Virus record (IMG/VR): IMGVR_UViG_3300022221_000009
Span: 1 to 57,503 of that record
Source of the DNA: a virus
Taxonomy: Duplodnaviria > Caudoviricetes
DNA length: 57,503 nt
Reading direction: 5' to 3' (one strand)
The notes below the pieces were generated by a model that worked only from the letters and a program-made list of their open reading frames with translations, was not told where the DNA came from and searched no databases. The translations under genes were made by a program, and so were the position numbers. Shown here one piece after another: positions 1,274 through 56,249 of the stretch; position 1 is the stretch's first letter; every line of letters starts with the position of its first letter.

Positions 1274-3168
1274 ATCACACCTCCAGGCGGTAACATTGCT
1301 TGTTGCGGCGCTTGAGGCATCCCCTGCTGACCACCTGACATATCAGGCGCAACCTGGCCTGCCTTTTCTTCATCCGACACCACCATGGTGTCAGGTTTGA
1401 TATCCATACCGTCCGCAATCTCACGCATGGCCTCAGTACTCTTTAGGTCAGGATGACCGGCAAACATCTGCGCGAACTGCATCATCTTCTGGGTCTGGAT
1501 TTCTTTCGCCATGATCGCGGCAGAGCCTTTCGCCCTGACCAACATCTTGCCCAGAATCTCCCGTTTGGGGTTATGCCGCATATTCCAGTCATACATAGCT
1601 TCAATCAACGGCTCCAGGCCAAAGGCATCGATATTGCGCATCACCTTCTTGAGTGATCTGTTGGCATTGGAATTCAGGATACTCATGCCCGTGGCCGTAT
1701 CATTAGTGTTGGTCCCTTCCATGCCTGAGGTCAACGACGGCATAAAGGTTTCTTCGTCCATCAGCTGCCGGAACAGGTGGATGATCTTGATAAACTGATC
1801 TGTGTAGGCTGGTATCTCAAAAACATTGACCGCGCGCTTACTGTTATTACCGTCATGCTTCGAGTAAATCACACGCCAAGCCCGGATATCATCAACCTTC
1901 TCTCCGGGCTGTAATAAATCCATATTCACATCAAGTAATGGACCACTAGCAATCGCCGCGTTATCAATCATGATACGCGCCGCCGCGTTAATCGCGTCTT
2001 GAGAACCTTTACCCAGGTACGGGACGCCTTTCCCGAAAGGCCCAAAGCCAGCCCGTTTCACATATGGGATAATGTTGTATGGGATTCGGCCCTTGTGTTG
2101 CTTGGCCTTCAGTACAAACTGACCGCAGTACCAAATACAACCTTGTGTCTCCAGCGATTGCAATTCATACGGCATCTTGACGCCGGCATTACTTAATTCC
2201 TGTCCGGTGACCGGCCCATGGTAAACAATCACCCGATAACGCTTGCTTGCATTAGGGTCGGCATCGCCCGCGATAGTGCGTAACTCAATCTGATGCGTTT
2301 CAAGATTGGCATTACCCGCTGGAAAGTCTCGCAAGATCCGCAGGACCGAAGACGTATTGAACCCAGACTGCATTGCCAGATCCATCATTTGTGCGCGAGT
2401 CAGGAACAATTCTTCAAATATGCCGTTACCATCCTGAACACTAGTGGCTTCCATGTCCGGATAAAGATTGAAAATAGAGCAATACTTAACGTCCGGCTTA
2501 TGGCCCTGGCGCTCAATTTCGTTGGCGACCACCTCCATATTGGCATCGAACCCGACTTCCCAGTCACTCTTTTTGTCTTTGACCGTAAACGGGCCTTTCA
2601 AAGCACCTGATCCGGTAATCGTCATTTCAAGCACGGCCAGATCCAGATTTTCTGGCAAGTCAACCTCATCCAGCTGATTGCTGATTTCTGTCTTCATCGA
2701 TTCCGTGCGTACTCGCATCTCCTCGCGGATATGCTGAATAGTAATCCCCTGCTGTATCAAAAAAGGATGAAGCTCTGCATCATCCGGTATCGGCGCCGGG
2801 TCCAGGTCCCACGGCTCATCAGATAAGAAGTCCATGATCGCCGCATGCGCAGAATGAACTTTCATCTGCGTCAAACCAACCCACAATTTGGATCGACCAG
2901 CTTTAAACCGGGCCATTACGTTTGGTGAATACTCGTTGTTGTAACGACGGTAAGCATCCAACCACTCTTGTTCAAGTGTTTCACGCCGACGCCGACGTAC
3001 TTCTAATTCAGTATTTAACCTGGCGACCAAGTTACTTGGGCGGGACATTGTTTCCAGTGCTGCACCCAAGGTGTTTTCAACTTCTGCTAAATGTGCAGCA
3101 CGATTAGATAACTGATGATCACTTGGCCGGATAGCCATGGCTTGTACTTGTTGTTGTGGTACAGCCAT
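1270..3168 (-). CDS. Portal protein
   Basis: 632 aa directly after terL. Podoviral portal-like segments (GSGALKGP, FGKGV, INAAARIMIDNAAIASGP, TATGMSIL) and a Q/P-rich tail. Confidence 0.9.
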   Translation of the reverse strand: MAVPQQQVQAMAIRPSDHQLSNRAAHLAEVENTLGAALETMSRPSNLVARLNTELEVRRRRRETLEQEWLDAYRRYNNEYSPNVMARFKAGRSKLWVGLTQMKVHSAHAAIMDFLSDEPWDLDPAPIPDDAELHPFLIQQGITIQHIREEMRVRTESMKTEISNQLDEVDLPENLDLAVLEMTITGSGALKGPFTVKDKKSDWEVGFDANMEVVANEIERQGHKPDVKYCSIFNLYPDMEATSVQDGNGIFEELFLTRAQMMDLAMQSGFNTSSVLRILRDFPAGNANLETHQIELRTIAGDADPNASKRYRVIVYHGPVTGQELSNAGVKMPYELQSLETQGCIWYCGQFVLKAKQHKGRIPYNIIPYVKRAGFGPFGKGVPYLGKGSQDAINAAARIMIDNAAIASGPLLDVNMDLLQPGEKVDDIRAWRVIYSKHDGNNSKRAVNVFEIPAYTDQFIKIIHLFRQLMDEETFMPSLTSGMEGTNTNDTATGMSILNSNANRSLKKVMRNIDAFGLEPLIEAMYDWNMRHNPKREILGKMLVRAKGSAAIMAKEIQTQKMMQFAQMFAGHPDLKSTEAMREIADGMDIKPDTMVVSDEEKAGQVAPDMSGGQQGMPQAPQQAMLPPGGVM

Positions 3169-5392: not shown

Positions 5393-5540
5393 AGTTTAGT
5401 TGTCCGCAATTTTAGCGACGTTGGGTAACAAGTTCATCACAGTAATCTCTTACCTCGCAGTCTAAGTTTCCAAATTTGATACGCATATCAATCCTCAATT
5501 AAATTCCGCACCCACAGCCGCAGTTCCACATCTCCAGGCC

Positions 5541-5572
5541 AAAAAAAACCCCGTCCATTTGAATGGCGGGGC
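5541..5572 (-). terminator. Intrinsic terminator in the late leader (tR'-like)
   Basis: Minus strand GCCCCGCCATTCAAATGGACGGGG followed by U8, upstream of terS; fits Q-type antitermination. Confidence 0.65.
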
Positions 5573-5932
5573 TTTAAAACACAGCTAGATGGTCTGAACC
5601 TAACTATTGTTGACGACGATTCGGTGATGAGCAAGTTGTGGTATCAACCAGGAGACCCAACCATGGACCTCCGTAGTCACCTTGCGCAGCATACAGATAA
5701 ATCCTAAAGTAGATTAAACAATAAATCAACCAAATGTAATCTGAAGTAGTATTGTTTGTGATACTTAAAAAGGGTGCCCTGCATCCTGCAAGGCTTGGGA
5801 ATGGGTACAACTTCATGTTGTATTTCTGTCTTGGGAGAAACAGAAATAATAATTTATCACAACAAATTTGTTTGTGTAGCTTATTTTTTCTGGGTATCCG
5901 GATTTTATGATTGATATATGATTTATAGTCGC

Positions 5933-6133
5933 CTACAACAGCCTGTTTTTCTCGTCAATCAACAGTCGATTGATGAGGTCTGTCTCTGTCACATCATCCC
6001 CTAATTTGAGGCAGATTTTTAAAGCCTCGTTGGCCTCAGGCGAGAGCCTCCAGGATTTGCGGGCGCCGCCCGCGTGTTTGAGCGCGGCGATAGAGTCGTT
6101 TACTCGCTGCGTGGCTGTGCGTGGTTTAGTCAT
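5933..6133 (-). CDS. Small ribbon-helix-helix-type regulator (candidate Aca)
   Basis: 66 aa; strand RKSWRLS then two helices (PEANEALK..., TETDLINRLL). Last gene of the cassette; its stop codon lies within the left IR. Confidence 0.6.
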   Translation of the reverse strand: MTKPRTATQRVNDSIAALKHAGGARKSWRLSPEANEALKICLKLGDDVTETDLINRLLIDEKNRLL

Positions 6134-6639
6134 TTAGTTGGCTCCAGCGAGCGAAACGCCACACGCTCCATTTTGCGCACCTCGTCGGCCATTTCATCCG
6201 GCACGCAGACAGTGACACATTGACACTCGCGCGGACAGCCCACAATGCCGCGATGTTCGCGCAGGATTTTGTAACACCAGGTCCGCACGTCCTCGCGTTT
6301 TTTGCCTGTGATGTTAGCAACGTGTTTGTGACTGTGCCCCTCCACCAGCACCAGCCGCGCCGCCTCCAGGCTGGCGGGCGCGATCTTGGTGTAGCTGGCG
6401 GCAAGGTCAAATTGCTCGGGGGTCATGACTCGATATTCAAACATACCCTTAATAAATCCATTCAAGATTTCATCCGGCATTTCGGCCGCTCTGTCATTAT
6501 CTAAATCTGTTCGCCAGCCTTTAATTTTTGAATTCGTTGCAACAATGCCGCCGAGTTTGAATATCTCAATCGTTAAGTCTCTATCTCTACCGACGCCCGT
6601 CAAGTGCAGCAATTTTTTAAATATCTCGTTGTTGTTCAT
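6130..6639 (-). CDS. DUF1456/YehS-like domain fused to a KorA/TrfB (Aca4-like) HTH repressor
   Basis: N-part MNNNEIFKKL...DEILNGFIKG resembles DUF1456. C-part MTPEQF...EAARLVLVEG...VTVCVPDEMADEVRK follows the KorA/TrfB pattern. Confidence 0.7.
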   Translation of the reverse strand: MNNNEIFKKLLHLTGVGRDRDLTIEIFKLGGIVATNSKIKGWRTDLDNDRAAEMPDEILNGFIKGMFEYRVMTPEQFDLAASYTKIAPASLEAARLVLVEGHSHKHVANITGKKREDVRTWCYKILREHRGIVGCPRECQCVTVCVPDEMADEVRKMERVAFRSLEPTK

Positions 6640-6658
6640 TATCTGACCCCGCTTACTT

Positions 6659-6686
6659 ATTAGAAGCTGCCTATGCGGCAGCGTAA
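6659..6686 (-). CRISPR. Solitary type I-F CRISPR repeat-like unit #2 (not an array)
   Basis: Minus strand TTACGCTGCCGCATAGGCAGCTTCTAAT; the CTGCC-GCATA-GGCAG-CTT core matches the Cas6f hairpin of I-F repeats. Confidence 0.7.
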
Positions 6687-6712
6687 ATTATCTTTGTATG
6701 AGTCAGTTAGTC

Positions 6713-6955
6713 TTACAAAAGATTCTTTATTTCAAGAACATACCTGATCAAATAATGCTCTAAAGTTTCGCCGTTTTCGTCTTCTTTATCGTCCGGACAA
6801 CGAAACCATACCGCATTAACTGTTTTATACTCTACATCTTCTTCTTTTGACGCCCAATTGAATAAAACTCTTTTGAAACCCTGGTTGTTAAATTCTGCAC
6901 ATTCAAGCATAAATGAATGTGCATCGCTTTCGTTTTTAAAATTTAAGACTGGCAT
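6713..6955 (-). CDS. Small acidic protein, anti-CRISPR candidate (80 aa)
   Basis: Start re-called to ATG 6955 (MPVLNFKN...) with GGAGA RBS at 6964-6968; lies between two I-F repeats, upstream of Aca-like genes. Confidence 0.6.
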   Translation of the reverse strand: MPVLNFKNESDAHSFMLECAEFNNQGFKRVLFNWASKEEDVEYKTVNAVWFRCPDDKEDENGETLEHYLIRYVLEIKNLL

Positions 6956-6975
6956 TATAAGTTTCTCCGTTTCAG

Positions 6976-7005
6976 TCCCGGCATGACCCCGGCCGGGAAT
7001 CGGGG
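6976..7005 (-). promoter_or_regulatory. 5'-UTR H-type pseudoknot, copy 2
   Basis: CCCCG-AT-TCCCGGC-CGGGG-TCAT-GCCGGGA immediately upstream of the RBS. Confidence 0.6.
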
Positions 7006-7033
7006 TTTTTAAGCTGCCTGCACGGCAGTAAAT
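7006..7033 (-). CRISPR. Solitary type I-F CRISPR repeat-like unit #1 (Racr candidate)
   Basis: Minus strand ATTTACTGCCGTGCAGGCAGCTTAAAAA; 24/28 identical to the I-F repeat GTTCACTGCCGTACAGGCAGCTTAGAAA. Confidence 0.8.
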
Positions 7034-7057
7034 TTGTTTATTGATACAACACACTAA

Positions 7058-7345
7058 TTAGCTCACATGCACAAAATAAATAGTTTCTCGTGTGAAATCC
7101 TCTCTAACTTCGGATGTGTCGTTATAATCTTGATCTATGTCATCGCCAGATCCGATGTGGTCAGAATAGCCCACGCCATGAATTTCCAGCATTACCTCGT
7201 TTTGTATATCATCAAAACACTGAGCAATAAAATCGCTGTTTTCAAAACCGCTGCCCGCGCCGTGCGGTACAAGCGGTGCTTTAATTGCGGAATCAAAGTA
7301 TTCTTGACACCGCTCAACCATTAACTCTTTTGCATTCGTGCTCAT
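7058..7345 (-). CDS. Small acidic protein, anti-CRISPR candidate (95 aa)
   Basis: First gene after the strong promoter; AGGAGA RBS; D/E-rich. Confidence 0.65.
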   Translation of the reverse strand: MSTNAKELMVERCQEYFDSAIKAPLVPHGAGSGFENSDFIAQCFDDIQNEVMLEIHGVGYSDHIGSGDDIDQDYNDTSEVREDFTRETIYFVHVS

Positions 7346-7363
7346 TAATGTATCTCCTATCGG

Positions 7364-7394
7364 TCCCAGCGTCAGCCCCGGCTGGGAATCGGGG
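7364..7394 (-). promoter_or_regulatory. 5'-UTR H-type pseudoknot, copy 1
   Basis: CCCCG-AT-TCCCAGC-CGGGG-CTGAC-GCTGGGA; A-U replaces the G-C pair of copy 2. Confidence 0.6.
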
Positions 7395-7421
7395 GAGCTA
7401 AATATCTCAGCTCATTGGTAC

Positions 7422-7450
7422 AGTGTAGTCGCCTACGGTCTATTTGTCAA
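7422..7450 (-). promoter_or_regulatory. Near-consensus sigma70 promoter of the cassette
   Basis: TTGACA (7445-7450), 17-bp spacer, TACACT (7422-7427); overlapped by the quasi-palindrome GTAGTCGCCTAC. Confidence 0.8.
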
Positions 7451-7482
7451 CTATAAAATCCGGATACCTTTTTTCTCATCCT

Positions 7483-7740
7483 TTAATTAAACACCATCAC
7501 CCAGGCCGCACGCAGCCGCTGTCGAAAGGTCATCCCTCCTATCAGCTGCGATCCAAGCGACATTAAATGCACAGCCATGACTGGCAAAGGCGTCCCTCGC
7601 TTGGTCTTGAAACCGAAATACTTTAATTGCTTACCGTCGTGGTAGATTATCTGCAACACCTCAACGCCAGTCTGCCGGTGCTTATCCAGCTTGAAGCCTT
7701 TAAACACCGGGCCTTTATAATTTGATTTTTTTTTGCTCAC
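7483..7740 (-). CDS. Hypothetical protein
   Basis: Basic ORF; GTG start coupled to the upstream stop. Confidence 0.5.
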   Translation of the reverse strand: MSKKKSNYKGPVFKGFKLDKHRQTGVEVLQIIYHDGKQLKYFGFKTKRGTPLPVMAVHLMSLGSQLIGGMTFRQRLRAAWVMVFN

Positions 7741-7931
7741 ATCTCTACTCCAGGAAACCAACGGTGATGATCACCAAGCCGGCGTTGAGTCTCCGGCAAC
7801 ACCTTCTCTTCCATCATTTCATAGTCGTTCAGGGCTTCCAGTACTCGTTCTTCTAACTCTTTTTGTGCCTGAAATTTTTCTATATTTCGTTTAGCTACTC
7901 CCAATTGCTGTTCGACCAGGGTTTCAAACAT
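7737..7931 (-). CDS. Probable C-terminal fragment of the split J-domain gene
   Basis: Frame stays open upstream to about 8005 (IRAIERYKGLKNKVRKKSEGPN-M). Confidence 0.45.
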   Translation of the reverse strand: MFETLVEQQLGVAKRNIEKFQAQKELEERVLEALNDYEMMEEKVLPETQRRLGDHHRWFPGVEM

Positions 7932-7999
7932 GTTTGGTCCTTCTGATTTCTTGCGGACTTTGTTCTTTAGTCCCTTATAGCGTTCAATTGCTCGGATGC

Positions 8000-8278
8000 T
8001 TAAAGAGTCTCTTTCTGGATAGCTATACCAAACAAAGCAATCAACTTATTCCTGACCTCAACCCAACCATCAGGGATATCACTCTCCCCGGTTTCATCAT
8101 ATTTAGCGCGTCGATTAACATCGTACAGAATTTCATAGGCATTATTCAGTTCGGCAAAAGTGTCCTTATCGCCACCGCGATCCGGGTGACACCGCATCGC
8201 CAGCCGTTTGTAGGCCGTCTTGATTTCTGCTTGAGTTGCATCCTTAGACACACCCAATACTTCATACGGATTTTGCAT
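8000..8278 (-). CDS. DnaJ/J-domain protein (possibly truncated)
   Basis: [15 protein letters not shown]...[15 protein letters not shown]...NAYEILYD; intact HPD motif. Confidence 0.85.
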
Positions 8279-8687
8279 TTTGTTTTTTCTCCTGTGTATA
8301 AAGCCAGACATCGATCCAGCGTAGGCCGTCTTTGACTTTGGCTCTAAATGTTGATTTTGATATTCCAAACCACGTGAGGTTATTAGATACACCTTCTAAT
8401 CCGATATAGTTTGCAATCAGGATTTGTGCTAATTCCTTGTAACGAGGATGGTCGCTCATTTCATGCATAGCTTTTTCTATTTGTTCAGCATCATCATTGA
8501 CAGGTGGTAACTTCTGGCCTTTGCTGCGAATCATAACGCCGCCCATTTCGATTAATTCATATTCCAGCGTTTTAGATGCATATCCGTTTAATTCTCCATC
8601 CTCACGCCGACAGGCCCAGTTCGCCCACATCTTAACCAACATATCGATGTATTGGAGCCGCTCGTCATCGTACTGGCGCATGCTCAC
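8262..8687 (-). CDS. Antiterminator Q-like late regulator
   Basis: [12 protein letters not shown]-terminus and C-terminal HTH-like [11 protein letters not shown]; near the end of the delayed-early arm. Confidence 0.55.
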
Positions 8688-11478: not shown

Positions 11479-12318
11479 TCATGATAGGGCTAACCCCTTC
11501 TGGACTTGATATTTCTCAGCCCGGTCGTTTAGCCAGACGCATTCGGTGCGCAGGCCTGTGCCTCTGCCGGCAGAGATGCGGGCCTTGGTTTCGTGGCGGG
11601 TCCAGTCGGCCAGAAGGTCGTCATATAGTTCGCTTCTATAGCCGGACAGGACGACATAGCCCTGGACTTGATGGAGTACCTGCAGCAGCTGGCGGTGATC
11701 GTCGTCGGTCATTTCGTGGCGGTAGACTAATGAGTGACTCATCTTTCTAGCGTCGTGCGTGTAAGGTGGATCGACATAGTGGAGTGTATCGAGGTCGTCA
11801 TTTGCCTGAATCACATCTATGGCTGGTCGGTTTTCAATTATTACGCCTTCAAGTCGTTCTCCGAAGCTGCGGATGTGTTCGGGATATTTGGCCCAGATGT
11901 GGGCAGCAAGGGAGTAAGCGCGTTTTGAATCACATCGAAATCCGGTTTTTAATCCAGAACTTCCAGCAGACCCGAAGCCTGCCTGTGCTCTGAACAATGT
12001 GCGACAGGCCTGTTCCACTGGGTCGCTGGAAGGCTGGTAGGACAATCTAAACTCATCACGAGAGAAGGGGGTCAGGATGCACTGTTCTATCAGTTTTTCT
12101 CGCAGGGCTTCATCACGCAGCACCCGGAAAACGTTGACTACTTCACCATCGAGGTCGTTATACACTTCGGCATAGCAGCGTTGTTTTTGCATGAGTACGC
12201 TACCGGCCCCGCCAAAGGGCTCGACATAGCATTGGTGTGCGGGGAAGAATTGCATGACCCAGGCAGCCAGTCGGAACTTGCCGCCGTGGTAGCGCATGAT
12301 GGGTGACACGACAGACAT
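11479..12318 (-). CDS. DNA adenine methyltransferase (D12 class)
   Basis: RYHGGK, YVEPFGGAGSV, YNDLD and catalytic DPPY. Confidence 0.9.
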   Translation of the reverse strand: MSVVSPIMRYHGGKFRLAAWVMQFFPAHQCYVEPFGGAGSVLMQKQRCYAEVYNDLDGEVVNVFRVLRDEALREKLIEQCILTPFSRDEFRLSYQPSSDPVEQACRTLFRAQAGFGSAGSSGLKTGFRCDSKRAYSLAAHIWAKYPEHIRSFGERLEGVIIENRPAIDVIQANDDLDTLHYVDPPYTHDARKMSHSLVYRHEMTDDDHRQLLQVLHQVQGYVVLSGYRSELYDDLLADWTRHETKARISAGRGTGLRTECVWLNDRAEKYQVQKGLALS

Positions 12319-12797
12319 TACAACCTCGCACTCATACTGGTCAACCGTGCCCCAGTAATCCCTGGCCGAAATATCACAAGACTATTCAGATAGCGGTTAT
12401 TCTTTTGCGGGACTCCGTCCAACTCAAACCAGATCCGATTTTGAATATTTCTTATTTCCGAGGCTTCCTGCAGGATGATGTCATGCCAGTAGTTGGTGTC
12501 GGTTGACGATAAAATCAGGGCCGCGATAGTGTTACCGTACTTGTGACACATGCGGGAACACCATTCGATCCACTTTTCCATTTTGTAATCCGGATCCGCG
12601 TATGGCGGATTCAGCCAGATCCGTTTTTTCTTAAACGTCATACTCAACACATTCTGATCGCGTGTTACGAACTTCTTGTGCTTGGCCGTACTGGGTTCTG
12701 CTGCGGCATCAAGCTGAAAGCGAAACTCTTCGTTACACCGGTTATAAAAATCCCATGGTGTGGCATAGCAGTTCTTGTCAAATTCCACTTCGCTCAC
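12318..12797 (-). CDS. Phage N6-adenine DNA methyltransferase
   Basis: ATP...F..LDAAA, WLNPPY and TDTNYWH motifs. Confidence 0.85.
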   Translation of the reverse strand: MSEVEFDKNCYATPWDFYNRCNEEFRFQLDAAAEPSTAKHKKFVTRDQNVLSMTFKKKRIWLNPPYADPDYKMEKWIEWCSRMCHKYGNTIAALILSSTDTNYWHDIILQEASEIRNIQNRIWFELDGVPQKNNRYLNSLVIFRPGITGARLTSMSARL

Positions 12798-24256: not shown

Positions 24257-24414
24257 TGGATAAGACTGAAGAACTAACCAAAGCCGCCGAAGCAATTAAC
24301 ACCCTGGCGTTATTATTTCAGGCCGACAGTGAAGAGATCATCGAATTACTGACCGGCACTGTTGTTGATGAAGAAGAAGCGGGACAGTTGAAGTTAATTT
24401 GCGAGGGGGAATAG
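24256..24414 (+). CDS. Small acidic hypothetical protein
   Basis: GGAGG RBS and TAATG coupling. Confidence 0.5.
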   Translation: MDKTEELTKAAEAINTLALLFQADSEEIIELLTGTVVDEEEAGQLKLICEGE

Positions 24415-24416
24415 CT

Positions 24417-25001
24417 ATGAACACCGAAGCATATCCATTGCAATGGCCAGAAGGCCGACCACGGACACCAAAACACAGCAGAATTGATTCTAAAATGTCT
24501 GACAAGTTTACTCAGACCAGAGATCAATTAATAAATGAAATAAAACTCCTAAAAGGTAAATTACCGGTTATATCGTCTTGCTTAATGTTGAGAAAGGACG
24601 GTCTTCCTTTATCTCATCAAAGAGCCCCCGAGGATACTGGTGTAGCTGTTTATTTTACTTACAACGATAAACAAATGTGTTTTGCTTGCGACAAATACAA
24701 AAAGATTGCGCACAACTTACGGGCCATCACTTTAACAATCGAAGCTCTAAGAGGCATTGCCAGATGGGGGACCGGCGACATGATGGAACAGGCCTTTTCT
24801 GGTTTCGCTGCCCTGCCAGACCATAGTGGTGAATCATGGCGGGATATTCTTGGCGCACACGATGTTAACTCTATCTCTGCCATAGAGCATAAATACAAGT
24901 TATTGCGATCAAAATACCATCCAGACAAAGGCGGCGATGCGGTAATGTTTCATAAAATCAATAAGGCTTGGGAACAGGCAAAGGCAGAATGTGAGGATTG
25001 A
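24417..25001 (+). CDS. Phage protein with C-terminal J-domain
   Basis: AYPLQWPEGRPRT, D.GVAVYF, and YKLLRSKYHPDKGG. Confidence 0.85.
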   Translation: MNTEAYPLQWPEGRPRTPKHSRIDSKMSDKFTQTRDQLINEIKLLKGKLPVISSCLMLRKDGLPLSHQRAPEDTGVAVYFTYNDKQMCFACDKYKKIAHNLRAITLTIEALRGIARWGTGDMMEQAFSGFAALPDHSGESWRDILGAHDVNSISAIEHKYKLLRSKYHPDKGGDAVMFHKINKAWEQAKAECED

Positions 25002-25314: not shown

Positions 25315-26694
25315 ATGCCAGAACTAACCATCAGCCAATACCAGGGAGTCCTGCGCGAAGCAGGCAAACTGGTACCATCTGCCCGAACGATTAAGCGGGA
25401 GATCGCGTCTGGCCGACTGGGGGGCTACAAGAAACCGGGTCCAACTGGGCGATATGTTGTTGATCCTGATCGCCCGATCTCGGATACTACCCAACCAGAG
25501 GGAATGGGAATGGGTGGAAATCGACTACGGATCCATGATGGGTTGCCGCCTAACTTATATAAGTATAAGAAGAGCGATACTTGGTATTTTAGGTACAAAA
25601 TACCGGAACATATTAAAAATATTCCGGAAAATGAACGCTGGCAACCTTTAGGATCAAACGAATCAAAGGCCATCGATGCGGCCAATCAATTTAACCAGAA
25701 GTTTGGTAAAGGGTCTGATTTAGTGGCCCAGGTATACGCACGTCTGGACTCTATTGATCGCCATTTCGGGAGATATGTACAGAAGTTTCTGACGCAGATC
25801 CTCCCCGCTCGACGTGTTGGTAAGCGTAAAGAGCCTATGAGTCCGAACACTATTACTGAATACACCCGAATTTGTAATGACTTTCTATCGATCTGGAATG
25901 AAAAATACTTTCCGGAAATTACCCAGGCCATCATAGCTGAATACCTGAATAAGCAGGTATCTGCAGCAGTTTATAACAAGCACCGTACTGTTTTAGGGTT
26001 AATTTGGAAATATGCGATCAGCGATGGATTGATTGAAGATAAAGTTAATTTACCATTAGCTATTGTGAAAAGGGATGGAGAAAAGACAAAACGTCACCGA
26101 CTTACATTGGAAGGCTACCAAGCAATATTTGAACATGCTTCCTTTGCTGTTCAATCAGCCATGGAGTTATCGATCAATTGTATTCAAAGGCGATCTGATA
26201 TTCGGATATGGAAATTTGATGATACATTGGATAACGGCATGGTTCGTCGAATTGTTTCAAAAACAAAATCACGAGGAATGGAAGCCTATATAATGATTCC
26301 GATCACGCTTCCTTTGATCCATTCTGAACGAGGATGTAAAACACTCAAAGAATTAATTAATAGCTGTCGTGATAATGTGCCCTCACCTTATCTGGTTCAC
26401 CATAAGCCATACCGTCGAAAGCTATCTAAACAGAAAGACCACTGGACACAATTAAGCAAAGAAGAAATATCAAATGGCTTTGCTGATGCCAGAGAGAGCA
26501 GTGCGTTTTATCAAAAACTACCACCGGAAGAACGTCCCACATTACATGAATGTATTGCCCTTGGTGAACATCTTATGGGAAATGCAGGCTATGATGAAAA
26601 GTGGATACAGCTGCTCCGAGGTCATCAAAAAATTGAGACAACCCGACTTTACCTGGAGGACCATGAATGGACAGTGATACCGATGCCATGTTAA
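25315..26694 (+). CDS. int: Tyrosine integrase with N-terminal excisionase-like extension
   Basis: Arm-binding LPPNLY...YFRYK; catalytic QRRSD, KTK, HECI and LRGH...TRLY; adjacent to attP. Confidence 0.88.
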   Translation: MPELTISQYQGVLREAGKLVPSARTIKREIASGRLGGYKKPGPTGRYVVDPDRPISDTTQPEGMGMGGNRLRIHDGLPPNLYKYKKSDTWYFRYKIPEHIKNIPENERWQPLGSNESKAIDAANQFNQKFGKGSDLVAQVYARLDSIDRHFGRYVQKFLTQILPARRVGKRKEPMSPNTITEYTRICNDFLSIWNEKYFPEITQAIIAEYLNKQVSAAVYNKHRTVLGLIWKYAISDGLIEDKVNLPLAIVKRDGEKTKRHRLTLEGYQAIFEHASFAVQSAMELSINCIQRRSDIRIWKFDDTLDNGMVRRIVSKTKSRGMEAYIMIPITLPLIHSERGCKTLKELINSCRDNVPSPYLVHHKPYRRKLSKQKDHWTQLSKEEISNGFADARESSAFYQKLPPEERPTLHECIALGEHLMGNAGYDEKWIQLLRGHQKIETTRLYLEDHEWTVIPMPC

Positions 26695-27928: not shown

Positions 27929-28195
27929 ATGACTTGTACCGGCTTAACAATATTTCAGGTTGAGATAGTCAACTTCATTGCCATGGCGATCACCATGGGG
28001 CCAGCCTTATTGGCCGGCCTTTATGTGTTTGCCCGAACTACCCGGAAAGTGGAAAGCCAGTACCAGACCCGGCATGGCTCGATGGAAAGACGAATCGCGC
28101 TAAACTTTGCCCTGATACCGGGCTTGATCGCCTTTGTATTATCCGCGGCCTTTCTTTCACTCCTGACCCAGCACCTTTTTTGCGTGTTCCCGTAG
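27929..28195 (+). CDS. Small two-TM membrane protein
   Basis: Two hydrophobic helices; convergent with the giant gene. Confidence 0.5.
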   Translation: MTCTGLTIFQVEIVNFIAMAITMGPALLAGLYVFARTTRKVESQYQTRHGSMERRIALNFALIPGLIAFVLSAAFLSLLTQHLFCVFP

Positions 28196-31100
28196 ATTCT
28201 CCATTTTCCGTTTGATCACCTGCTTCTGTTTCAGGTATTCCTGACCATCAATCAGATTCCGTTTTTTGTCCGACTCCAGCTGGAACATTTGACTACTTAG
28301 TGCACGCTGGATTTGATCGATATCCCGCGCATGCCAGGACAGACCGTATTTCACGTCATGGGGGGCCAGCTTGACACCGGCAGAGGATAAGAAAGCATAG
28401 CCGATCCCGTACTCACGGCCCAGCATGTCACGGCCACCCTTGATCGACCGTTCAATCTTTTGCCAGTACCAGGACTCCGGTATCCAGGGTGCTGCCGGCA
28501 TCCACGATCGCCACGCCCAGCCACCCAGCTTGGCTGCAGACTCCCCAGTGGTATCGATTTTCGAATCGACGATCTCCTTGCCGGTGAAGGCCTGCTTGTT
28601 CAAAGCCAATTCCCCAGCCAACATCAACGGGCCACTTAGCTGCAATGGCGCCGGTATCGGGAGTGCCCACTGACCCTGATTCATATCAAAGACATCCCCG
28701 GCCGGTATCCAGCGACGGATATCCAGGAAGACCGGGTTACCGTGTTCATCGTGCCAGGGCATGCGCATCATGCGAGGCACACCCGGCAGCCAAGTATTCC
28801 CTTGTGCTTGTTCACGCATGGAGCGGCGTTCCTCGTCCTCATCACCGGGCGATAGCATATAACCCAGGGCATTCACCATATAGGCAATCGTGGTGTACTT
28901 GGCCAGCTTCCACGGCCGTTCCGCAATGGATTTGGCGATCACCGGCACGGCCCGGTAGGTGTAGGCGATAAAGGGCAGCACAGTCCCGCGCATGGCGTTG
29001 ACCCAGGGTGCCCGAATATCGTAATTCAGGAACTGTTCACGCGCCGCACGGGCAGAGACATCCGGTTGATCACCGAGGGATAGACGGCGCATATAGGTGG
29101 CCATACGGAAAATCTCATCTTCCATCGAGTACCAGTCAATCATCCGTTTATCAGCCTTACCAACCCATTTCCAGATTGATTCGTACATCTGACTGAGGTT
29201 ATTCAGGCGACCCTCTGCCCCGCTGGCCTCGTCCAGATTCTGGCTTTTCAACTCTTCCAGGAGCGGGTCGAGGATCTGCCGGCGCACTTCCTGATCCACA
29301 AAGTTACTGCCAAACACCCCGTGCTCAACAGCATCCCGGTAGTCCTTGGTTTCATGGCGCAGGGCATACCAACCACGATACAGATCCTGCCAGCGAATAT
29401 CGGCCATATCCATAAAGATGAAGTTGGACATGATGTTATTCATGTGCACCACTGGGTTGCGGGCGGTCTTGTTCAGTTTCCACTGGGTCAGCAGCTTGCG
29501 CCACAAGCCCGGGACCTGGAGCCGACGCAGTTCATTCAGGTCACGCCAGATTTCCGCACGCACATACTTGCCGGCCAGAGGACCCCAGAGGCGTTTCGTT
29601 GTCCCGGGTAAGGTGGATTCTGGGATCTGCACCCATTCATAACCCACATACGTGGCCATGGCCCCCTTGGGGGTGGTGATGGTACCGGAATCGGGCGGTC
29701 CTTCTTCGGACCATACCCAGTTGGGGTTTTTGGCAATATCCGAGTAGAACCGTGCCGTGGACACATCATTGGCCAGCAACATATAGGACTTGGCCAGGAC
29801 ATACCGTGCATCGAGGATTTCCCCCATGGATTCACGCTCAGACTGCGTAAAGTCACGCCAGAGGGTGATCTTGTTGCCCTTGTAGCCGCGGGCCTCCCAG
29901 ATACCCTTGTTGTCCCAGCCCTTGTACATATTGGGCAGAGGCACGTCTGCAGGCCAGTAGCGACGGTCCAGGACACGCGGCTTGCGACCGGGCTCACCCA
30001 TTCCTTCGAAGGTTTCTGTGCCCTGCCCGACAGCCTGCACCTTGTCCAGCACGATAAACTTCATCCCCTGCAGGGAGCCGTCCGTCTTGTTTTTGAATTT
30101 CTGACGGCCCCACCAGTCAACCGGAACCGCATCAAGCAATTTGTCCTGCTCGATATTCATATTCATGCCCCGCTGGCGGAGCTGACTGCCAATCATCTTG
30201 GCTCGGCGGTTGGATAGCTGGTTATTGACCCAACGGCCCAAGCCGGTCTGTTCAATCTCATGCTTTTTGTACGCGCGGTGCAACCAGGTCCCCCGGTGGC
30301 GTTCATAGGTTTCCGCATCCAGCCAACCCAGTTCCACCAGTTCATGCCCCAGCTGGTCCAGGGCCTGACGAACCGGTGCCGCGATATCGTTCCACTCGGA
30401 ATCGGGAATTTGTTCACCTTCCAAAATGGCTTTGAAGACCTTGGCCTCTTTGACATCCATGCCCCGGTTCATCATGGTATTAATGAAATCAGCCCCTTCC
30501 ATCTGGATCCGACGCTTCTCGGCCTCACGCTCGAAGTCACGCTGTTTGTACTCTTCGGTCAGACCGTATCGATCGATCAAACCCGCACGTAAATGTTCAA
30601 GGAAAGGATTCATCCACCCCATATAGCCATCGGTATTGAACTTGCGATCCATCACCAGTTTTTCCAGTTGGTTATAGCCCTTCTTGGTTTTATCGGGCAC
30701 ACCGGCAATGTCGAAGGCCTTGCGGAAGACGCGATCAATTGGCTGACCTTTGCCCAGGCGGTCGAGGAGTTTCTTCTGGTTATCGGGGAGATCGTCGCGA
30801 TGGTCTTTGGAGATAGGGTCACCCAAGGAGAACATGACTTGACCTTGTTCCAGAACGGCGTCACGCATTTTTTTTGAGATATCAATGGAATGGGTAACCA
30901 AAGGATCTAATTGGTTTTCGTTTTTATTTACGAAAGCATCTGCTTCTTCTTCTGAGGCAAAAGTATCAAGGATATTTTCATCCATATCTACTACATGCCA
31001 TTCTCCCCGATTGTTACCCATAGCGAAGAGGCCTTTTAGGTATTTACGTTTACCAATATTAGTTTTACCAACTTTAGCCCCCCATTTTTTGACATACTTG

Positions 31101-34100
31101 TTGACAGCTGAAGGTAGTATTTTATCATAAAACCCTTTCATGCCTTCGCCGCCGACTTTGAGCTGCTCACCTTCTAGGTGATACGATGATCCGCCATTCT
31201 TGTTATCCCATCGTTTATTTTTTATTAATTTGTCCGCCGCTTCCTTCCCGATTAAATCAGGCAAATCTTCTTCTTTTACATCGCTTTTACTGATTACGCG
31301 ATCATGGTCTTTGTAAGCATACAGTGTCTCGGTACCACTATTGTATTCAACACTATCAATCTGCTTACTCAAGTCATACCGATCTGCCTGCTGTTCTCCG
31401 GTAGTCCAGGCGATCCGGTCAAATCCGTTCTCAGCGGCATAGCGGATCATGCGCTTCATAGCCAACAGGGGCCAGGTGGTTTTAAAGGGGGCATCAGGAA
31501 CAGTGTTTTTGGTATAATCTGAATGCTCCATCATCTCCTGTCGATAAGATTCTATATCGGTAACAGTGCTATCTAATTCGAAAAATTGACGCACCTCTGA
31601 ATCGCTAGGCACATCTTTTTTATACCCTTTCTTCCTGCCCTCCTGATGCCAGTCACTCTGTACTTCCTCGACAAATAACACACGTTTGCCCTCTGCGTCT
31701 GTGCGCTCATTGAAACGGATGTGGGCCAGAACATTGGGCTCATCGAAGTGGCTGGACTTGTAACTTTCACCATCCGGTGCGCTCAGTGCCACTTCTGGCA
31801 CCTGGTCTTTAATATCAAGTTTTTCAGATTCGGATAAATCATCCCAGCTAGGTTCGCCACCTTTTCGCATGAAGTTTTCATAGAATTGTTTTGCGCTGGC
31901 ATCTTCTGATAACTTTTTAACAGGCAACGTCAACAACATCTCCCGATAGTTTTTGCCTCCGGGTAATTGATATCCAGCAAATTTTGCTACTGAACTTGGT
32001 CTATGTGCAGCCTCTTGTAGTTTTTGTAATTTTTCTATAGCTGCCTTTGGCCATTCATAGGTTTGAGTTGTGCCGTATTTTATTTCCATTTCACGGCGAT
32101 ATTTATTTAATTCCTCAAGCTCTTTGTATTTGCCTGATATTTTTTCCATCTCTTCGATCTGGATATTATTCACCCGCAGGTAATCCAGCACCTGGTCCTT
32201 GCTTACCTTACCCTCTTGTTCCTGCAGCCACTCAACCAGTCCGGACCATTCCAGTTCTTCCTGTTTGAATTCGCCTTTCTTGGCCCATGACTGCACGGTC
32301 ATTGCCAGTTGCTTGGCTGGACCTGAGTTTGGTAATTTCTTAGCCAGGACAGATTGCAGTTGGCTGTAGAAAATTGGTGCATTAACTGAATACGAGACAC
32401 CTTCGCTTACAGTTTCCCCTGCTACAGCCGTTTCTTTTCGGATATGATTCGCTGCATCCTGCAGGATGACACCCATGTCGGCTTTGGTCAGTTTGAGATT
32501 AAACCCAAGTTGTCGCATCAAATCACGAATCATTGACACAATACGGTCAAAGAGTTGCTTGGCTTTTTTACTCAGAGTGTTGGCATGATAGGATTCAGCC
32601 AGTTTGGCAAGATATTCCTCGACAGCTTTTAATCTGTCGGATTCTTTATCGAGATCGAAATTGTAGCGTTTGGCAATATCGACAAGACTTGATCGACCAA
32701 CAGCCAGATAGACTTGTTTTAATATAGTAACCGCTTGATCACCGAAGCCTTTGAAACCGGCATGCAGTAATACTTCATGGAAGATGGCGCGCTCAACGTC
32801 TGCATCATTTAATAAGTTACCCGCAACCAGATAAACTTCACCGGTTTGATTATCGACAAAGCCCTTGATTCTATTTTCTTTGCCTTTTATTTGATTCTTG
32901 AATTTATCAGGCACGTCCTCGATAGAGGATAGAACGGTGATCTTCGGTTTGTTTTTCCAGCTGCTTGTCAGCCGATCAACAATTTCCTGTACCCCAGAAA
33001 CAGAAAACCCGGTTTGTGGCCGGGTTTCGGTATTGGATAGTTTGGCACTTACTGGTGGTCCTGATCCCTCAGTTCCCTCAGACGCTGCAGACTGTCGCGC
33101 TTGTTTTGCTGCAAGGAGGCGATCTCGGACGGACTCAGTTTCCGGTACCTTGACACGATCGAGGTATCGGGCTTCTGATTCTGTGAGGCTGTCAAATCCG
33201 TAGCCGAATTCTGAGACAAACCATTGTTCAAATTCATTTCCATAGCGTTCACGTAGTTTCTGTAAAATCTCCTGACTTGGTGCAAGTTTAGATGAATACT
33301 GCTTACCCATCAATGCAGACGTTAGAATAACCTCGCCACCCTGAGATTCAATGTAGCCCCGCAGGCTGGCCAGCGTTCCGCCTTGCGTTAAAGTATCGTC
33401 TACAATCAGGTACTTACGGCCTTTTTCCACTTCGCCGGTAAAGGTCGGCTGATTGGCCAGACGGTAGAAGCCATCTGACCCGCCTCGACCAATTTTCTCT
33501 GTCTGAACAATCGACTCGTCAACCTCCAGACCCAATTCATTGCCAATTACTTCGGCATACGCCAGGGGGATCTGGTTCACGCTGACCCGTTCCTCGGCAT
33601 GAATGGCCACCACAATGGGATAGTTATCACCAATAGCCCCGGACAGCTTATTAATGTCTTCATCCTCAATCAGATCCCGGGCCAATCGGTAAGCGGCCTC
33701 GATGTCGCCATCCTTCGCGGCACGGTAATCAGGGTGTCCCTGGGCTTCCTTGGCCGTTTTCAGGATAACTGCATTCGGGTAGTTTTCTGGCCATGGCGTG
33801 CGGACCTTATCACCAAGGGAAAAGCTGACGGATTCATCGCTGGGTAACGCTTCGACCATAAAGGCTTCGGCATTCTCTTTTTCCTTGAATATAAAACCTG
33901 TAGCGTAACGTGAATAATAACCATCATGCTTTTTAGCCAGCGATTTCAATTCCATATAACGATCACGTGGTACCCGGTCAACCATCTTAATGGTCCAGAT
34001 AGGATAATGATCTCTTGTGTGTTCACCCTCCGTCATTTCCAGTCCGGTGCGCTTAGCCTCTTCCTGGGCCTTGGCCTCGGCTTCCTCGGCTTCGCGTTCT

Positions 34101-37100
34101 TCCTTGGTCTTGGTTGGCTCATTCCGTGGATCGATAGAAAAGTCTTCTATTTCATCAAAAAACTCATGAACGGATTCAAAGCTACTGAAATCATAATTCG
34201 CTGACTGTGGCGCATCTTCCGGATTATCCTGTCGGTCCAGCACAACAACCCGTGTAGCCACCTTGGTTGCGGCCCGCTCAAAGGTCGCGGTGGGTAAAGT
34301 AATATCAGCCGCCAGATAAATATTCTCAGTCAACTTGTTGTCATACATAAGTTTATCGAACCGTTTGTCAGCCATACCCCCACGCGGAATGATAGCTGTA
34401 ATCCGGCCACCGTTTTTCAAATGTTTGATCGCTTTCTCGATATGACGAATAGCATCACTCCCGCCTTTACCGAAAGGGGGATTCATGGCGATCACATCAT
34501 ACTTGTTGATCAAATGATGATTTTCAAAGGTATCCCGGATCACCTTACCATTCGTGACAACCGCCAATTCACTGGCCAGTCGGCCGGACGGCTCAATAGC
34601 GGTATTATTTGAATGACCAGGGAAGAACCGCGCAATGGCACCATGACCGCCTGACGGCTCCATGGCATCTTCATTCGGCTTGATATTGGACCACTCGACC
34701 ATCTTTAGACCAAGGGGCTCAGGTGTCGCAAAATAATCCTTGCCCTCAGCGGATTTGTTGCGAGAAGTTTTCTTGCCTCGGGCCAAGTAATAGGTTTTGG
34801 CCCGATCAAAGTCTGATATCTCGCGCTGATTCCGGTCGCCTTCTTTCCCGCCTTTCCCTTGCCCTTCTTTGGGTGATTCTTCTACTGGGTTCAGATAGCC
34901 TTCCTTGAATGCAATATCCATGTCCCTGGCTGTCAAACCCATGGCCAAATTTTCAGCGGTACTGACACGCTGACTGATCGTGTCAGCATAAGCAAATCGT
35001 TCAAAGCTGGTGTTGATCACCGGGTATTCAAAGATTGCATCGGACTGAACACCAATCCGGTACACCCGGCCCTCCATCTGGATCGCGTCAGTCGGACTGG
35101 TCGGCAATCCCAACACCATCACCACACGCTGGCGCTTGCCCGTGATATCGTGAAGACTGATCCCTTCCTTACCCGCCATCTTCTGCACAACAAGAATAGA
35201 TAACTCGTTGTTATCGTTATTAAAATCCTTGATCGCGGCACGTCGGTCCTTTTTCGATTGACGACCATTGAACACCGCCACCTTTTCGCCAAAATGTTTT
35301 AACAGGGTATCAACCACAGGACGCAATCCAGATAGGTCAAGATTCACTAAATCAGAATGATGGTTTTTAAAGTGGGTTATTTCCTGTTCAAGTTCTTCTT
35401 CCCCATTTCCAACAAATCGGAAAGGATGTGCCGGAGCCCCTTCGATATAGTTGTGAAACACAACCACTTTACGTCCCAATGCCAGGTGCTTTTCAATTCG
35501 CTCAATGCTGGCCTTGGCCTTGATCGTTTCCAGTAAGCGATGCTTATAAATCCCCTTGGTTTTCTGACGCAGGTGCTCACTCAGTTTCGGGTAAGATTTG
35601 TGATCAATGACATCGTACATCCCTCGATCAATCTCGGTACCGATATCCGGATCCACCAGCACAAATTCACGGGCATAATCTTGTTCAACTTCAATAGCAC
35701 GACCGGATAATGAACCAGCTTCAACTAACTGCTGATTAAAGTTGCGCTCCAACAAACCGACATCGATACCAGCCTCGGGACGTTCAGCACGGTTATAGCG
35801 CATGTGGTACCCGAAATTCGATACCAGGAACTGATCAAAGTTATCCCCGGCGTTATAGTGGGACGTAGATGATTCGTCATATCCTTCTGTGGTATCGAAC
35901 ACATAGCCATCGGCATAGAACACATTCTTATGACCAGCCCACGGAGTCGCTGACAAAAAGACAACCTTAGTCGGGCTTTCCTCTTCCCATTTGCGGTACT
36001 TGTCGGCCAATTTATCGGCCTGTTTTTCAAGCAATTTGTACTCTTCCTTATATTTTTTTCTGGCCTTATCCTCTGCAGCAAAGCCATTTAATTTTTCTAT
36101 TTCTTCCAGTCGTTCCGCTTCTTTTTTAACCTTGGTTTGATATTTTGCATACTCATCCCGCAATTCATTGCGGCCACGCACCTTGTATTCAAAGTCTCGA
36201 TGATTGGTAATCGTGTAATGCTGCTCAGTGGTATCACTTTTCTTACCCTGCATATTCTCCATAAGCTTGTGAGACTCATCGTACAGAATCAGATCCCAGT
36301 GACGTTCGAGCAGAGCTTTGTTTTGGCGGAAATTGGCATACGTCGTAACGACCGCACCCTCACCAGCTGACACGACATTAGGTAGAGGTTCGGCTTTGAT
36401 AAACAGGTTTTTCGCATCAATCGCCCAATCAGTCACCTTGGCCTCAGAAGGGGTGACGATCAGAATATTGTTCTTACCATCCTTTGCAAACCGTTTGGCT
36501 ATTCCCAGGCCGGTATAGGTCTTACCGGTACCGGTACCATTGGTAAACATCATGCCTTTGCCATTGGCCTCATAAAACCGCTTTTCGGTTTTCAGGACAT
36601 CATCTTGCTGTTCGGGTGTGAGGAACGGGAGAGTTTCACGGATATTATCAATATCCTGGTGAATGTTTTTGATACGTTCAGCTTTGCGCTGGCGATCTAG
36701 TTTGGCTTGGTGCTCAGATTCCGTAGCATACGGTTCAATGTGGAGGCTTGTTTCTGGTTCAGTCTGTACTCCTGCGTCATCAGTTGTGTCGCTTCGTCCG
36801 GTGTCTGTACGTCCGGCAGGGCCTTCCTCAGATCTAAATTGTCCGTCTTGGCTAAATAGGTCGAAATTGCCTGATTCTCCAACATCGGCAGGGCTATCGT
36901 CTGATACGCGACGATCACCTTGTTGTCCACCTTGTCGGCTTTCAGTAGATTGGCTTGATGTTCCAGCGTCCTTTCCAGTTCCTCGTCCTGCATCACGAAC
37001 AGCATCTTCGCTGCCTGGCTCTTGGCCAGTGGTGCTATCTGATTCCAAATTGTCGCCGGTACTTGAAACATTATTGGTCTCCTGCTTTGAGTATAACTCA

Positions 37101-55814: not shown

Positions 55815-56249
55815 CTATATATTCAATGATGCTTGTTTTGTCAGCCTGATACAGACCGCCTGAATATCGATAATAGCCGCATCCAGAAGGATTGTCGGTG
55901 TGATATCGATATTGTCATCGGCTGCGTAATACTTACCACCGGAATAACCGGTTACCGTATTCGGTGCACCCTCAGTTAGAACGACAGGACCGGATACACC
56001 TTCACCCAACGCATTAACATCGGCTGCCGCAATAAAGCCATTCGGATCCGTGCCATCACCCATATCAAAGGTACCGGCAGCACCCTCGACGGTTTTGACT
56101 TCCCATCGCGTCAACATGACAAAGGTCCCGGCCTCAACCGCAAGTGCCGGCGCTGCCACCGCGGCGGCCAGATTTGTTTTTGAGCAGTCAATCGTCTTTT
56201 CAATCACGAAAATACGATCAAGTGCATCAGCAGAAACTTGATTACCCAT
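55815..56249 (-). CDS. Capsid decoration/minor head protein
   Basis: Follows the major capsid gene; small beta-rich protein. Confidence 0.6.
   Translation of the reverse strand: MGNQVSADALDRIFVIEKTIDCSKTNLAAAVAAPALAVEAGTFVMLTRWEVKTVEGAAGTFDMGDGTDPNGFIAAADVNALGEGVSGPVVLTEGAPNTVTGYSGGKYYAADDNIDITPTILLDAAIIDIQAVCIRLTKQASLNI

Follow-up and report, generated by a model that had tools for sequence, protein, structure and literature searches.

Are two neighboring small, acidic open reading frames (ORFs) of a phage anti-CRISPR (Acr) genes, and if so, against which CRISPR-Cas subtype would they act? The ORFs, P0001 and P0002, are located on the minus strand of IMG/VR record IMGVR_UViG_3300022221_000009, a single virus record of 57,503 bases (∼92% complete by estimate) that was assembled from sediment metagenome DNA; the complete stretch of 57,503 nucleotides (nt) is called the window herein. 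Each of the two ORFs is directly followed by a solitary unit resembling the type I-F CRISPR repeat, and these units, which an earlier sequence-only reading of the locus had missed, are the strongest evidence on it. Viral solitary repeat units have been reported to act as RNA anti-CRISPRs (Racrs; Camara-Wilpert et al. 2023, PMC10651486). Because solitary I-F repeat-like units directly follow each ORF and a published Racr precedent exists, the locus is, by analogy, very probably an anti-CRISPR locus with subtype I-F as its likely target. As to its exact makeup, we lean slightly toward an operon directed against type I-F that brings together Racr candidates, a repressor, and two proteins as new Acr candidates.

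The two solitary repeat-like units (SRUs) match the Rfam model of the repeat CRISPR-DR4, which we take to be the repeat of type I-F systems:

7033-7006, minus strand: SRU1, solitary type I-F repeat-like unit (ATTTACTGCCGTGCAGGCAGCTTAAAAA), Racr candidate; Rfam RF01317 CRISPR-DR4.
6688-6657 (core, 6681-6664), minus strand: SRU2, partial I-F repeat-like unit (ATTTAC-G-CTGCCGCATAGGCAGCTT-CTAATAA); partial match to Rfam CRISPR-DR4.

The I-F label is consistent with the I-F repeats of PMC10651486, as it is with the arrays of 60-nt period that we retrieved from viral contigs. SRU1 scored 36.7 bits (gathering score, 35) over all 28 model positions (E = 1e-4 across the window), and it is the sole match of any Rfam family above gathering score in all 57.5 kb. 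It equals the Rfam consensus (GUUCACUGCCGcACAGGCAGCUUAGAAA) at 23 of 28 positions, with two of the five differences in the loop, and it keeps the 5-bp stem and the closing base-of-stem C6 and G20, two nucleotides described as essential for Cas6f binding and inhibition (PMC10651486). SRU2 scored 22.4 bits at model positions 6 to 23 only (E = 0.036 in an 861-nt search); its core consists of the hairpin plus CUU, with all 18 aligned model positions paired or matched and with C6 and G20 present. The SRU2 hairpin (−12.3 kcal/mol; z, −3.4) has a stronger stem than that of SRU1, and the unusual 5′ flank AATTTAC is common to both units.

Both SRUs lie on the coding strand, SRU1 beginning 24 nt past the P0001 stop codon and SRU2 26 nt past that of P0002. 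Separated by 347 nt and by a conserved protein gene (P0002), they do not form an array. Apart from SRU1 and SRU2, the I-F hairpin pattern occurs in the window at one unrelated site with one mismatch, at 56152. The record contains no Cas6f (0 matches), and no Cas family was found among 43 window ORFs scanned; the units thus lie outside any array and lack adjoining cas genes, which makes them solitary. The SRU1 sequence is absent from the supplementary text of PMC10651486, a text that may be incomplete, so that this absence is no proof of SRU1 being uncatalogued.

Hairpins between genes may have nothing to do with CRISPR: SRU1 and SRU2 could be intercistronic processing or stability hairpins, or palindromes bound by a regulator, in a generic plasmid-like regulatory or moron cassette. 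This would suit a locus in which only SRU1 passes the Rfam threshold, by 1.7 bits, in which the downstream protein P0003 (described below) is a member of a family of plasmid repressors that bind palindromes, and in which neither a host nor a cas gene ties the repeat to a system. We nevertheless consider it quite unlikely. The SRU1 match extends beyond a palindrome, spanning 28 positions that include both single-stranded flanks, and SRU2 retains the hairpin, the CUU, and the 5′ flank. The same pattern retrieves genuine I-F arrays and mini-arrays elsewhere (loci L128, L129, and L137), and neither of the two hairpins is located in the promoter, the place expected for an operator.

We also considered a degenerate mini-CRISPR array or a Cracr-type gene, that is, a CRISPR RNA (crRNA)-like gene guiding host Cas proteins to repress cas or toxin promoters. 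Viral crRNA-like I-F regulators are described as widespread and often found beside acr genes (Liu et al., bioRxiv 10.1101/2024.10.29.618823), and one of the viral loci retrieved with the hairpin pattern (L137, IMGVR_UViG_2636416160_000019, positions 2001-2116) contains three I-F repeats at a 47-nt period with ∼19-nt spacers, followed by a terminator-like hairpin, and judged by its sequence fits the published Cracr array class. Cracrs require two repeat-like units around a short guide, with mature CracrIF RNAs of 46 to 49 nt (bioRxiv 10.1101/2024.10.29.618823), whereas SRU1 and SRU2 are 347 nt apart with a conserved gene in between, and no further I-F hairpin is present near either of them. A Cracr-type function of the present locus is therefore very unlikely indeed.

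The two ORFs that precede the repeat-like units are as follows:

7345-7058, minus strand: P0001, 95 amino acids (aa), acidic, Acr candidate 1; ORF with 2 homologues and an AlphaFold2 model.
6955-6713, minus strand: P0002, 80 aa from the ATG at 6955, acidic, Acr candidate 2; ORF with 2 homologues.

The sequence-only reading had described two small D/E-rich ORFs of these lengths with good ribosome-binding sites (RBSs), and on these points it holds. P0001 contains 20 D+E versus 5 K+R residues (isoelectric point [pI], 4.15; net charge, −15), and P0002 contains 16 D+E versus 9 K+R residues (pI, 4.68; net charge, −7). The RBSs, as read from the sequence, are AGGAG 8 nt 5′ of the P0001 ATG and GGAG 9 nt 5′ of the P0002 ATG. 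A mechanical ORF list also gives a longer form of P0002, of 113 aa from a GTG (6713-7054), and public protein collections carry P0002 in this GTG form (termed P0007), which spans SRU1 and the leader element described below. Since both P0002 homologues begin at the position equivalent to the ATG at 6955, 80 aa is the likely product.

Exactly two homologues of P0001 were detectable in very large protein collections (73% and 67% identity), and an exhaustive HMMER scan of 1.84 billion representatives returned exactly two homologues of P0002 (57% and 55% identity). All four come from short metagenome contigs and are acidic as well (pI 4.1 to 4.4), and the P0001 and P0002 alignments show blocks of invariant residues with substitutions in between. 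Judged by these alignments, the P0001 and P0002 ORFs are more than chance reading frames. A kinship between P0001 and P0002 was considered and rejected; the two proteins are unrelated to each other. The P0001 model is a three-helix bundle with a mean predicted local distance difference test (pLDDT) score of 85.9 (AlphaFold2, 3-sequence alignment), which is good confidence for so shallow an alignment. The best PDB sequence row for P0001, a designed Kelch-like protein (1.2e-05), contained no stretch passing alone and was set aside as compositional, and the ESM Atlas gave no usable feature match for either protein.

P0001 and P0002 are followed on the same strand by two further genes, P0003 and P0004, so that the four-gene operon reads P0001, P0002, P0003, P0004 in that order, within these elements:

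7450-7422, minus strand: predicted sigma-70-type promoter, TTGACA-17 nt-TACACT; consensus scan, 10 of 12 matches.
7395-7413, minus strand: imperfect palindrome/hairpin GAGCTGA-GATAT-TTAGCTC, 19 nt; read from the sequence, folds as a 7-bp stem.
6639-6130, minus strand: P0003, 169 aa, DUF1456-like N-terminal domain plus KorA/TrfB-type helix-turn-helix (HTH) domain; Pfam, PDB.
6133-5933, minus strand: P0004, 66 aa, basic (pI 9.4), start overlapping the P0003 stop; ORF.
5794-5776, minus strand: terminator-like hairpin plus T run downstream of the operon; terminator scan.

The shape is that of a classic acr-aca operon, with small acidic orphans first, an HTH family member last, and its own predicted promoter and terminator; by analogy, it matches an acr-racr architecture for type I-F, twice over, followed by a repressor-family gene. 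The first place of P0001 and P0002 in the operon, also claimed by the sequence-only reading, fits the predicted promoter that precedes P0001. This promoter is a prediction only, because promoter-like sites in the region are not above the shuffle level (4 sites versus 5.5 expected from shuffles; no enrichment). The 19-nt palindrome sits just past the predicted transcription start, after the −10 element, and by sequence is a candidate operator or 5′ hairpin; a second operator candidate is the 8-bp palindrome ATCCGGAT within a conserved 16-mer, upstream of the −35 element. By eye, we noticed a second terminator-like element that the terminator scan did not report, a strong hairpin (CCCCGCC...GGACGGGG) with eight T's at 5541-5578 on the minus strand, within the 530-nt noncoding gap that separates the operon from a small-terminase-like gene.

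P0003 matched KorA (PF16509) with 40.6 bits (cutoff, 26.7; 3e-10) and, just below the cutoff of 27, DUF1456 (PF07308) with 25 bits (2.2e-5); it also matched KorA-domain proteins in PDB (1.7e-5). Among its relatives, the two halves occur as separate proteins. In a sequence-only phmmer search of all PDB chains with E values up to 10, P0003 gave nine rows (seven KorA/TrfB proteins, one HIV-2 reverse transcriptase chain, and one VHH) and none of the named Aca families with a solved structure (Aca1, Aca2, Aca7, Aca10, and Aca11). It is nevertheless an HTH protein encoded downstream of candidate acr genes in one operon, which is how Aca proteins are recognized by position. An HTH gene thus does follow the acidic ORFs, as had been claimed, and P0003 is a candidate repressor that is Aca-like by position only. 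P0004 matched no family in Pfam, PHROG, or NCBIfam; its PDB matches to designed repeat proteins were set aside as compositional.

A literature search found no paper pairing DUF1456 with anti-CRISPR. When 20 metagenome loci carrying relatives of the DUF1456 half of P0003 were examined, only one (L158, 296-984) was close (63% identity), and none had an I-F hairpin near the DUF1456 gene. In L158, the relative is a stand-alone protein of 89 aa, with an acidic 138-aa ORF (pI 4.2) directly before it and a DUF6685 protein after it, a second instance of an acidic ORF upstream of a DUF1456-like domain. Most of the other DUF1456 loci look like ordinary cellular genes, and four of these genes directly follow a large excinuclease-like ORF (by eye).

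Both acidic ORFs are preceded by the same GC-rich leader element of 31 to 32 nt:

7394-7363, minus strand: leader copy A, CCCCGATTCCCAGCCGGGG-CTGAC-GCTGGGAC, directly 5′ of the P0001 RBS; 19-nt core repeat.
7005-6975, minus strand: leader copy B, CCCCGATTCCCGGCCGGGG-TCAT-GCCGGGAC, between SRU1 and the P0002 RBS; 19-nt core repeat.

The element reads CCCCGAUUCCCRGCCGGGG, 4 to 5 nt, and GCYGGGAC, and its 19-nt core has two exact copies in the window (0.01 expected). Two helices are possible, CCCCG/CGGGG (about −8 kcal/mol) and CCCRGC/GCYGGG (−10 to −12 kcal/mol), which are mutually exclusive if nested and whose geometry is that of a compact H-type pseudoknot. Copies A and B differ by one compensatory change (G:C in A to A:U in B) and by their connecting loop, two copies being too few for a covariation test. 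The leader may be an RNA target of the operon regulator, by analogy to Aca2, which is reported to bind RNA (cited in PMC12658196); alternatively, it may be the relic of a terminator hairpin like those after lone I-F units in two of the retrieved viral loci (L135 and L142).

No exact copy of the leader was found in viral contigs. An 18-nt version has at least 120 single sites in high-GC genomes, which were judged to be chance matches because 3 of 120 have a weak downstream arm-like motif and none has an I-F hairpin upstream. The leader is absent from Rfam. It matched CRISPR-DR18 there at 20 bits (E about 1), which falls short of significance, and the 3′ end involved is missing from copy A.

With the hairpin pattern and a TTTAC flank, 30 loci were fetched from viral contigs, including genuine I-F arrays (60-nt period), mini-arrays, and lone units; 16 sites were classed as solitary by script. 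At four of these (in L123, L140, L143, and L145), a same-strand ORF with a pI of 5.3 or lower ends 8 to 18 nt upstream of the unit. An independent parallel to the present locus is L123 (IMGVR_UViG_3300044504_000122, 1802-3063), which likewise has tandem I-F units on the coding strand (784 nt apart), each preceded by a small ORF, in L123 paralogous ORFs of 61 and 65 aa with a Glu/Tyr/Asp-rich acidic tail, and each followed by a repeated leader, an RBS, and a gene. It differs in that its proteins are unrelated to those of the present locus (tblastn, no match) and that no HTH gene is present in the 4 kb fetched. The L123 downstream genes encode a RadC-like JAB protein (PF04002, 2.1e-37) and a DUF7659 protein. 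The comparison shows that ORF-repeat cassettes recur and that the accompanying genes need not be known Acrs.

Several findings weigh against an operon that combines repeat mimics with protein inhibitors. As the sequence-only reading had stated for recognized Acr families, P0001 and P0002 match no family in Pfam, PHROG, or NCBIfam, and P0002 is without a PDB sequence match. The P0002 model (beta-alpha-beta-beta-alpha) is of low confidence (AlphaFold2; mean pLDDT, 62). Foldseek searches of PDB and viral models gave nothing better than an E value of 0.8 for the two proteins, and wide structural searches with VIA-align yielded no more than generic bundles of helices for P0001 (best Z, 8.5, a value in the tool's common range for helical proteins) and a Z of 4.6 at most for P0002. 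By sequence and fold, both are therefore orphans without detectable relation to validated Acrs. The hidden Markov model and structure searches against Acr databases that the earlier reading had proposed were carried out here against general family libraries, PDB, and folds, and no Acr relation was seen; most Acr families are mutually unrelated. Orphan status is typical of Acrs, yet also of many phage genes, and phages commonly carry small acidic orphan ORFs irrespective of what these do.

The surroundings add further points of this kind. SRU2 is under the Rfam gathering score, and an extra G lengthens its stem. SRU1 lies ∼390 nt downstream of the predicted promoter, which is beyond the 250 bp used for selection in PMC10651486, and the record carries no host assignment, hence no matching I-F system is shown. 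In viral contigs, the 4 of 16 sites with an acidic ORF upstream are a minority of the solitary sites, and the upstream ORFs there are not known Acrs (three compared with PDB and five with Pfam; no known family). Viral contig searches found no contig encoding a relative of P0001, P0002, P0003, the small terminase, or the P0002-family alignment, and the P0001 alignment found no relative in genome contigs.

These points bear above all on the proteins, for which an Acr role draws on genomic context. SRU1 and SRU2 might be the only anti-CRISPR agents of the locus, with P0001 and P0002 countering another defense (for example, restriction, by DNA mimicry) or serving early host takeover and sharing no more than the early operon with the mimics. 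We consider this somewhat unlikely but weighty, given that no similarity of P0001 or P0002 to any Acr was found among families, PDB entries, or folds. The L123 repeat units point in the same direction: since they are followed by RadC-like and DUF7659 genes, which are not known Acrs, repeat units also accompany other cargo. In addition, the phage invests heavily in anti-restriction functions elsewhere. Adjacent adenine methyltransferase genes are located at 11479-12318 (D12 class) and 12318-12797 (Dam-type) on the minus strand and probably serve self-protection against restriction. A 4,306-aa ORF (28157-41077, minus strand) has matches to the inorganic pyrophosphatase PF18823 (5e-57) and to ResIII/Helicase_C and weak matches to methyltransferases, and we take it to resemble the giant anti-restriction virion proteins of some phages. 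This richness in counter-defense genes, two methyltransferases and the 4,306-aa helicase/methyltransferase protein, was, together with the temperate nature of the phage, also counted in favor of a combined anti-CRISPR operon. Against a role of the mimics alone, acr genes are statistically enriched beside viral solitary repeats (within 1 kb, for acr genes that are predicted), and anti-defense loci often pool inhibitors of one system (PMC10651486). That each ORF is strictly paired with a single repeat, both times at the same spacing, likewise suggests a functional unit. The proposal of P0001 and P0002 as new Acr candidates is partly supported, with a much stronger context, through SRU1 and SRU2, and with the proteins still assigned by that context.

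In the anti-type-I-F operon that we favor, one early transcript would carry the leader, P0001, SRU1, the second leader copy, P0002, SRU2, P0003, and P0004. We infer a host with a type I-F system, whose Cas6f would bind the repeat mimics and probably cut after the base-of-stem G. As for RacrIF1, the mimics would next give rise to dead-end assemblies of Cas6f and Cas7f, in competition with real crRNAs. P0001 and P0002 would be protein inhibitors of the same I-F system, with DNA mimicry plausible for P0001 given its net charge, and P0003, possibly with P0004, would, in the manner of Aca proteins, shut off the strong promoter once a first burst has passed.

The operon is bracketed by an imperfect inverted repeat:

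5893-5937, plus strand: left arm, 45-nt imperfect inverted repeat; repeat search, partner 7424-7468.

The arms are 73% complementary, with the outer 16 nt identical and the four-gene operon between them. The right arm includes the promoter; the left arm, a weaker copy that faces inward, overlaps the stop codon of P0004. Flush outside the arms on the plus strand are near-identical 9-mers, TTTTTTCTG (5884-5892) and TTTTTTCTC (7469-7477), which contain an 8-bp direct repeat; agreement at 8 of 9 positions was seen in 169 of 200,000 trials with random pairs of window positions. The inverted repeat may stem from the insertion of a cassette that duplicated its target site, or its arms may be two promoter/operator copies. 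The 16-nt arm end has six single matches in viral contigs, none extending beyond 21 nt, and because these matches are single and short, they give no evidence of a widespread mobile element. Contigs of two DNA sequencing runs that contain the stretch, and that may be its source, showed no cassette-free variant and no sequence differences; no RNA run was listed as containing it, and the locus (5400-8000) had no megablast match to GenBank phages.

A more speculative reading, which we think improbable, sees in the operon an anti-CRISPR switch that senses CRISPR, amplifies itself, and is carried by a small mobile cassette. Where active I-F machinery is present, Cas6f would cut the polycistronic RNA at both mimics and free a giant pseudo-crRNA made of a 5′ handle (CUUAAAAA), the ∼320-nt P0002 message, and a 3′ Cas6f hairpin, which could sequester Cas7f subunits by the dozen, along with Cas5f and Cas8f. 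The cuts would part the acr messages from the repressor message, such that Acr output would rise only where CRISPR is present, and the new 5′ ends would be protected, or gated in translation, by the pseudoknot-like leader. The entire 1.6-kb unit would be a transposed module, with the 45-nt inverted repeats and the 8-bp direct repeat as its marks.

As for the rest of the phage, a tyrosine integrase with a lambda-type arm-binding domain (25315-26694, plus strand) indicates that it is temperate. Its portal and adaptor proteins are of the SU10 type. Two DnaJ-domain proteins are encoded, one at 8000-8392 on the minus strand, just upstream of the operon, and one at 24399-25001 on the plus strand; a Q-like antiterminator candidate (8262-8687; phrog_79, 1e-5) adjoins the former.

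If assays succeed, the locus would add new RNA decoys of type I-F and as many as two new families of anti-CRISPR proteins. If the favored operon is real, it would be the first I-F example found, in a limited literature comparison, in which a single message alternates repeat mimics with acr genes. It also points to a blind spot: gene callers stretch P0002 to 113 aa over SRU1 (P0007), and because this call covers SRU1, searches restricted to intergenic regions, as SRUFinder is described in PMC10651486, could miss such units. Searching for lone repeats that have the end of a small acidic ORF a few bases upstream is perhaps a cheap route to new Acr families in uncultured phages.

How does the locus compare with known systems? 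It shares with the Cracrs the phage-borne I-F repeat-like units, and Cracrs cooperate with co-encoded Acr proteins, as would be the case here; unlike Cracrs, it has no two repeat-like units around a spacer-length segment (bioRxiv 10.1101/2024.10.29.618823). With classical acr-aca operons (acrIF1-aca1 of JBD30, acrIF8-aca2 of ZF40, and acrIF11-aca7; PMC12658196), it has in common small orphans first and an HTH protein, there a repressor, toward the end; those operons have a strong promoter with nearby palindromes. It differs from them in its KorA/TrfB-type HTH with a DUF1456-like domain, which belongs to no named Aca family, and in the small basic protein that follows.

Two published Racr systems are closer. 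RacrIF1, from a Thiocystis violascens prophage, is likewise a solitary viral I-F repeat with a Cas6f hairpin and the C6/G20 pair, in a temperate phage and with no cas genes nearby; Cas6f binds and cleaves it, and it seeds a filament of Cas7f without Cas5f and Cas8f (PMC10651486). RacrIF1 is a small noncoding intergenic RNA with its own promoter, whereas the two copies described here lie inside a protein-coding operon and are known from their sequence alone. The acrIC5-racrIC1 locus, in a Bifidobacterium pseudocatenulatum prophage, likewise has a small acr gene with a repeat mimic close behind it in one transcript: AcrIC5 and RacrIC1 come from a single bicistronic RNA, the repeat lies 11 nt past the acr gene, and the protein and the RNA both act on one CRISPR subtype (PMC10651486). 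That locus is of type I-C, with one unit and a known Acr family, and it has been validated; the present one is I-F-like, with two interleaved units plus a regulator and with orphan proteins. The kind of locus is thus already known, and its new parts are the interleaved double unit and the orphan proteins.

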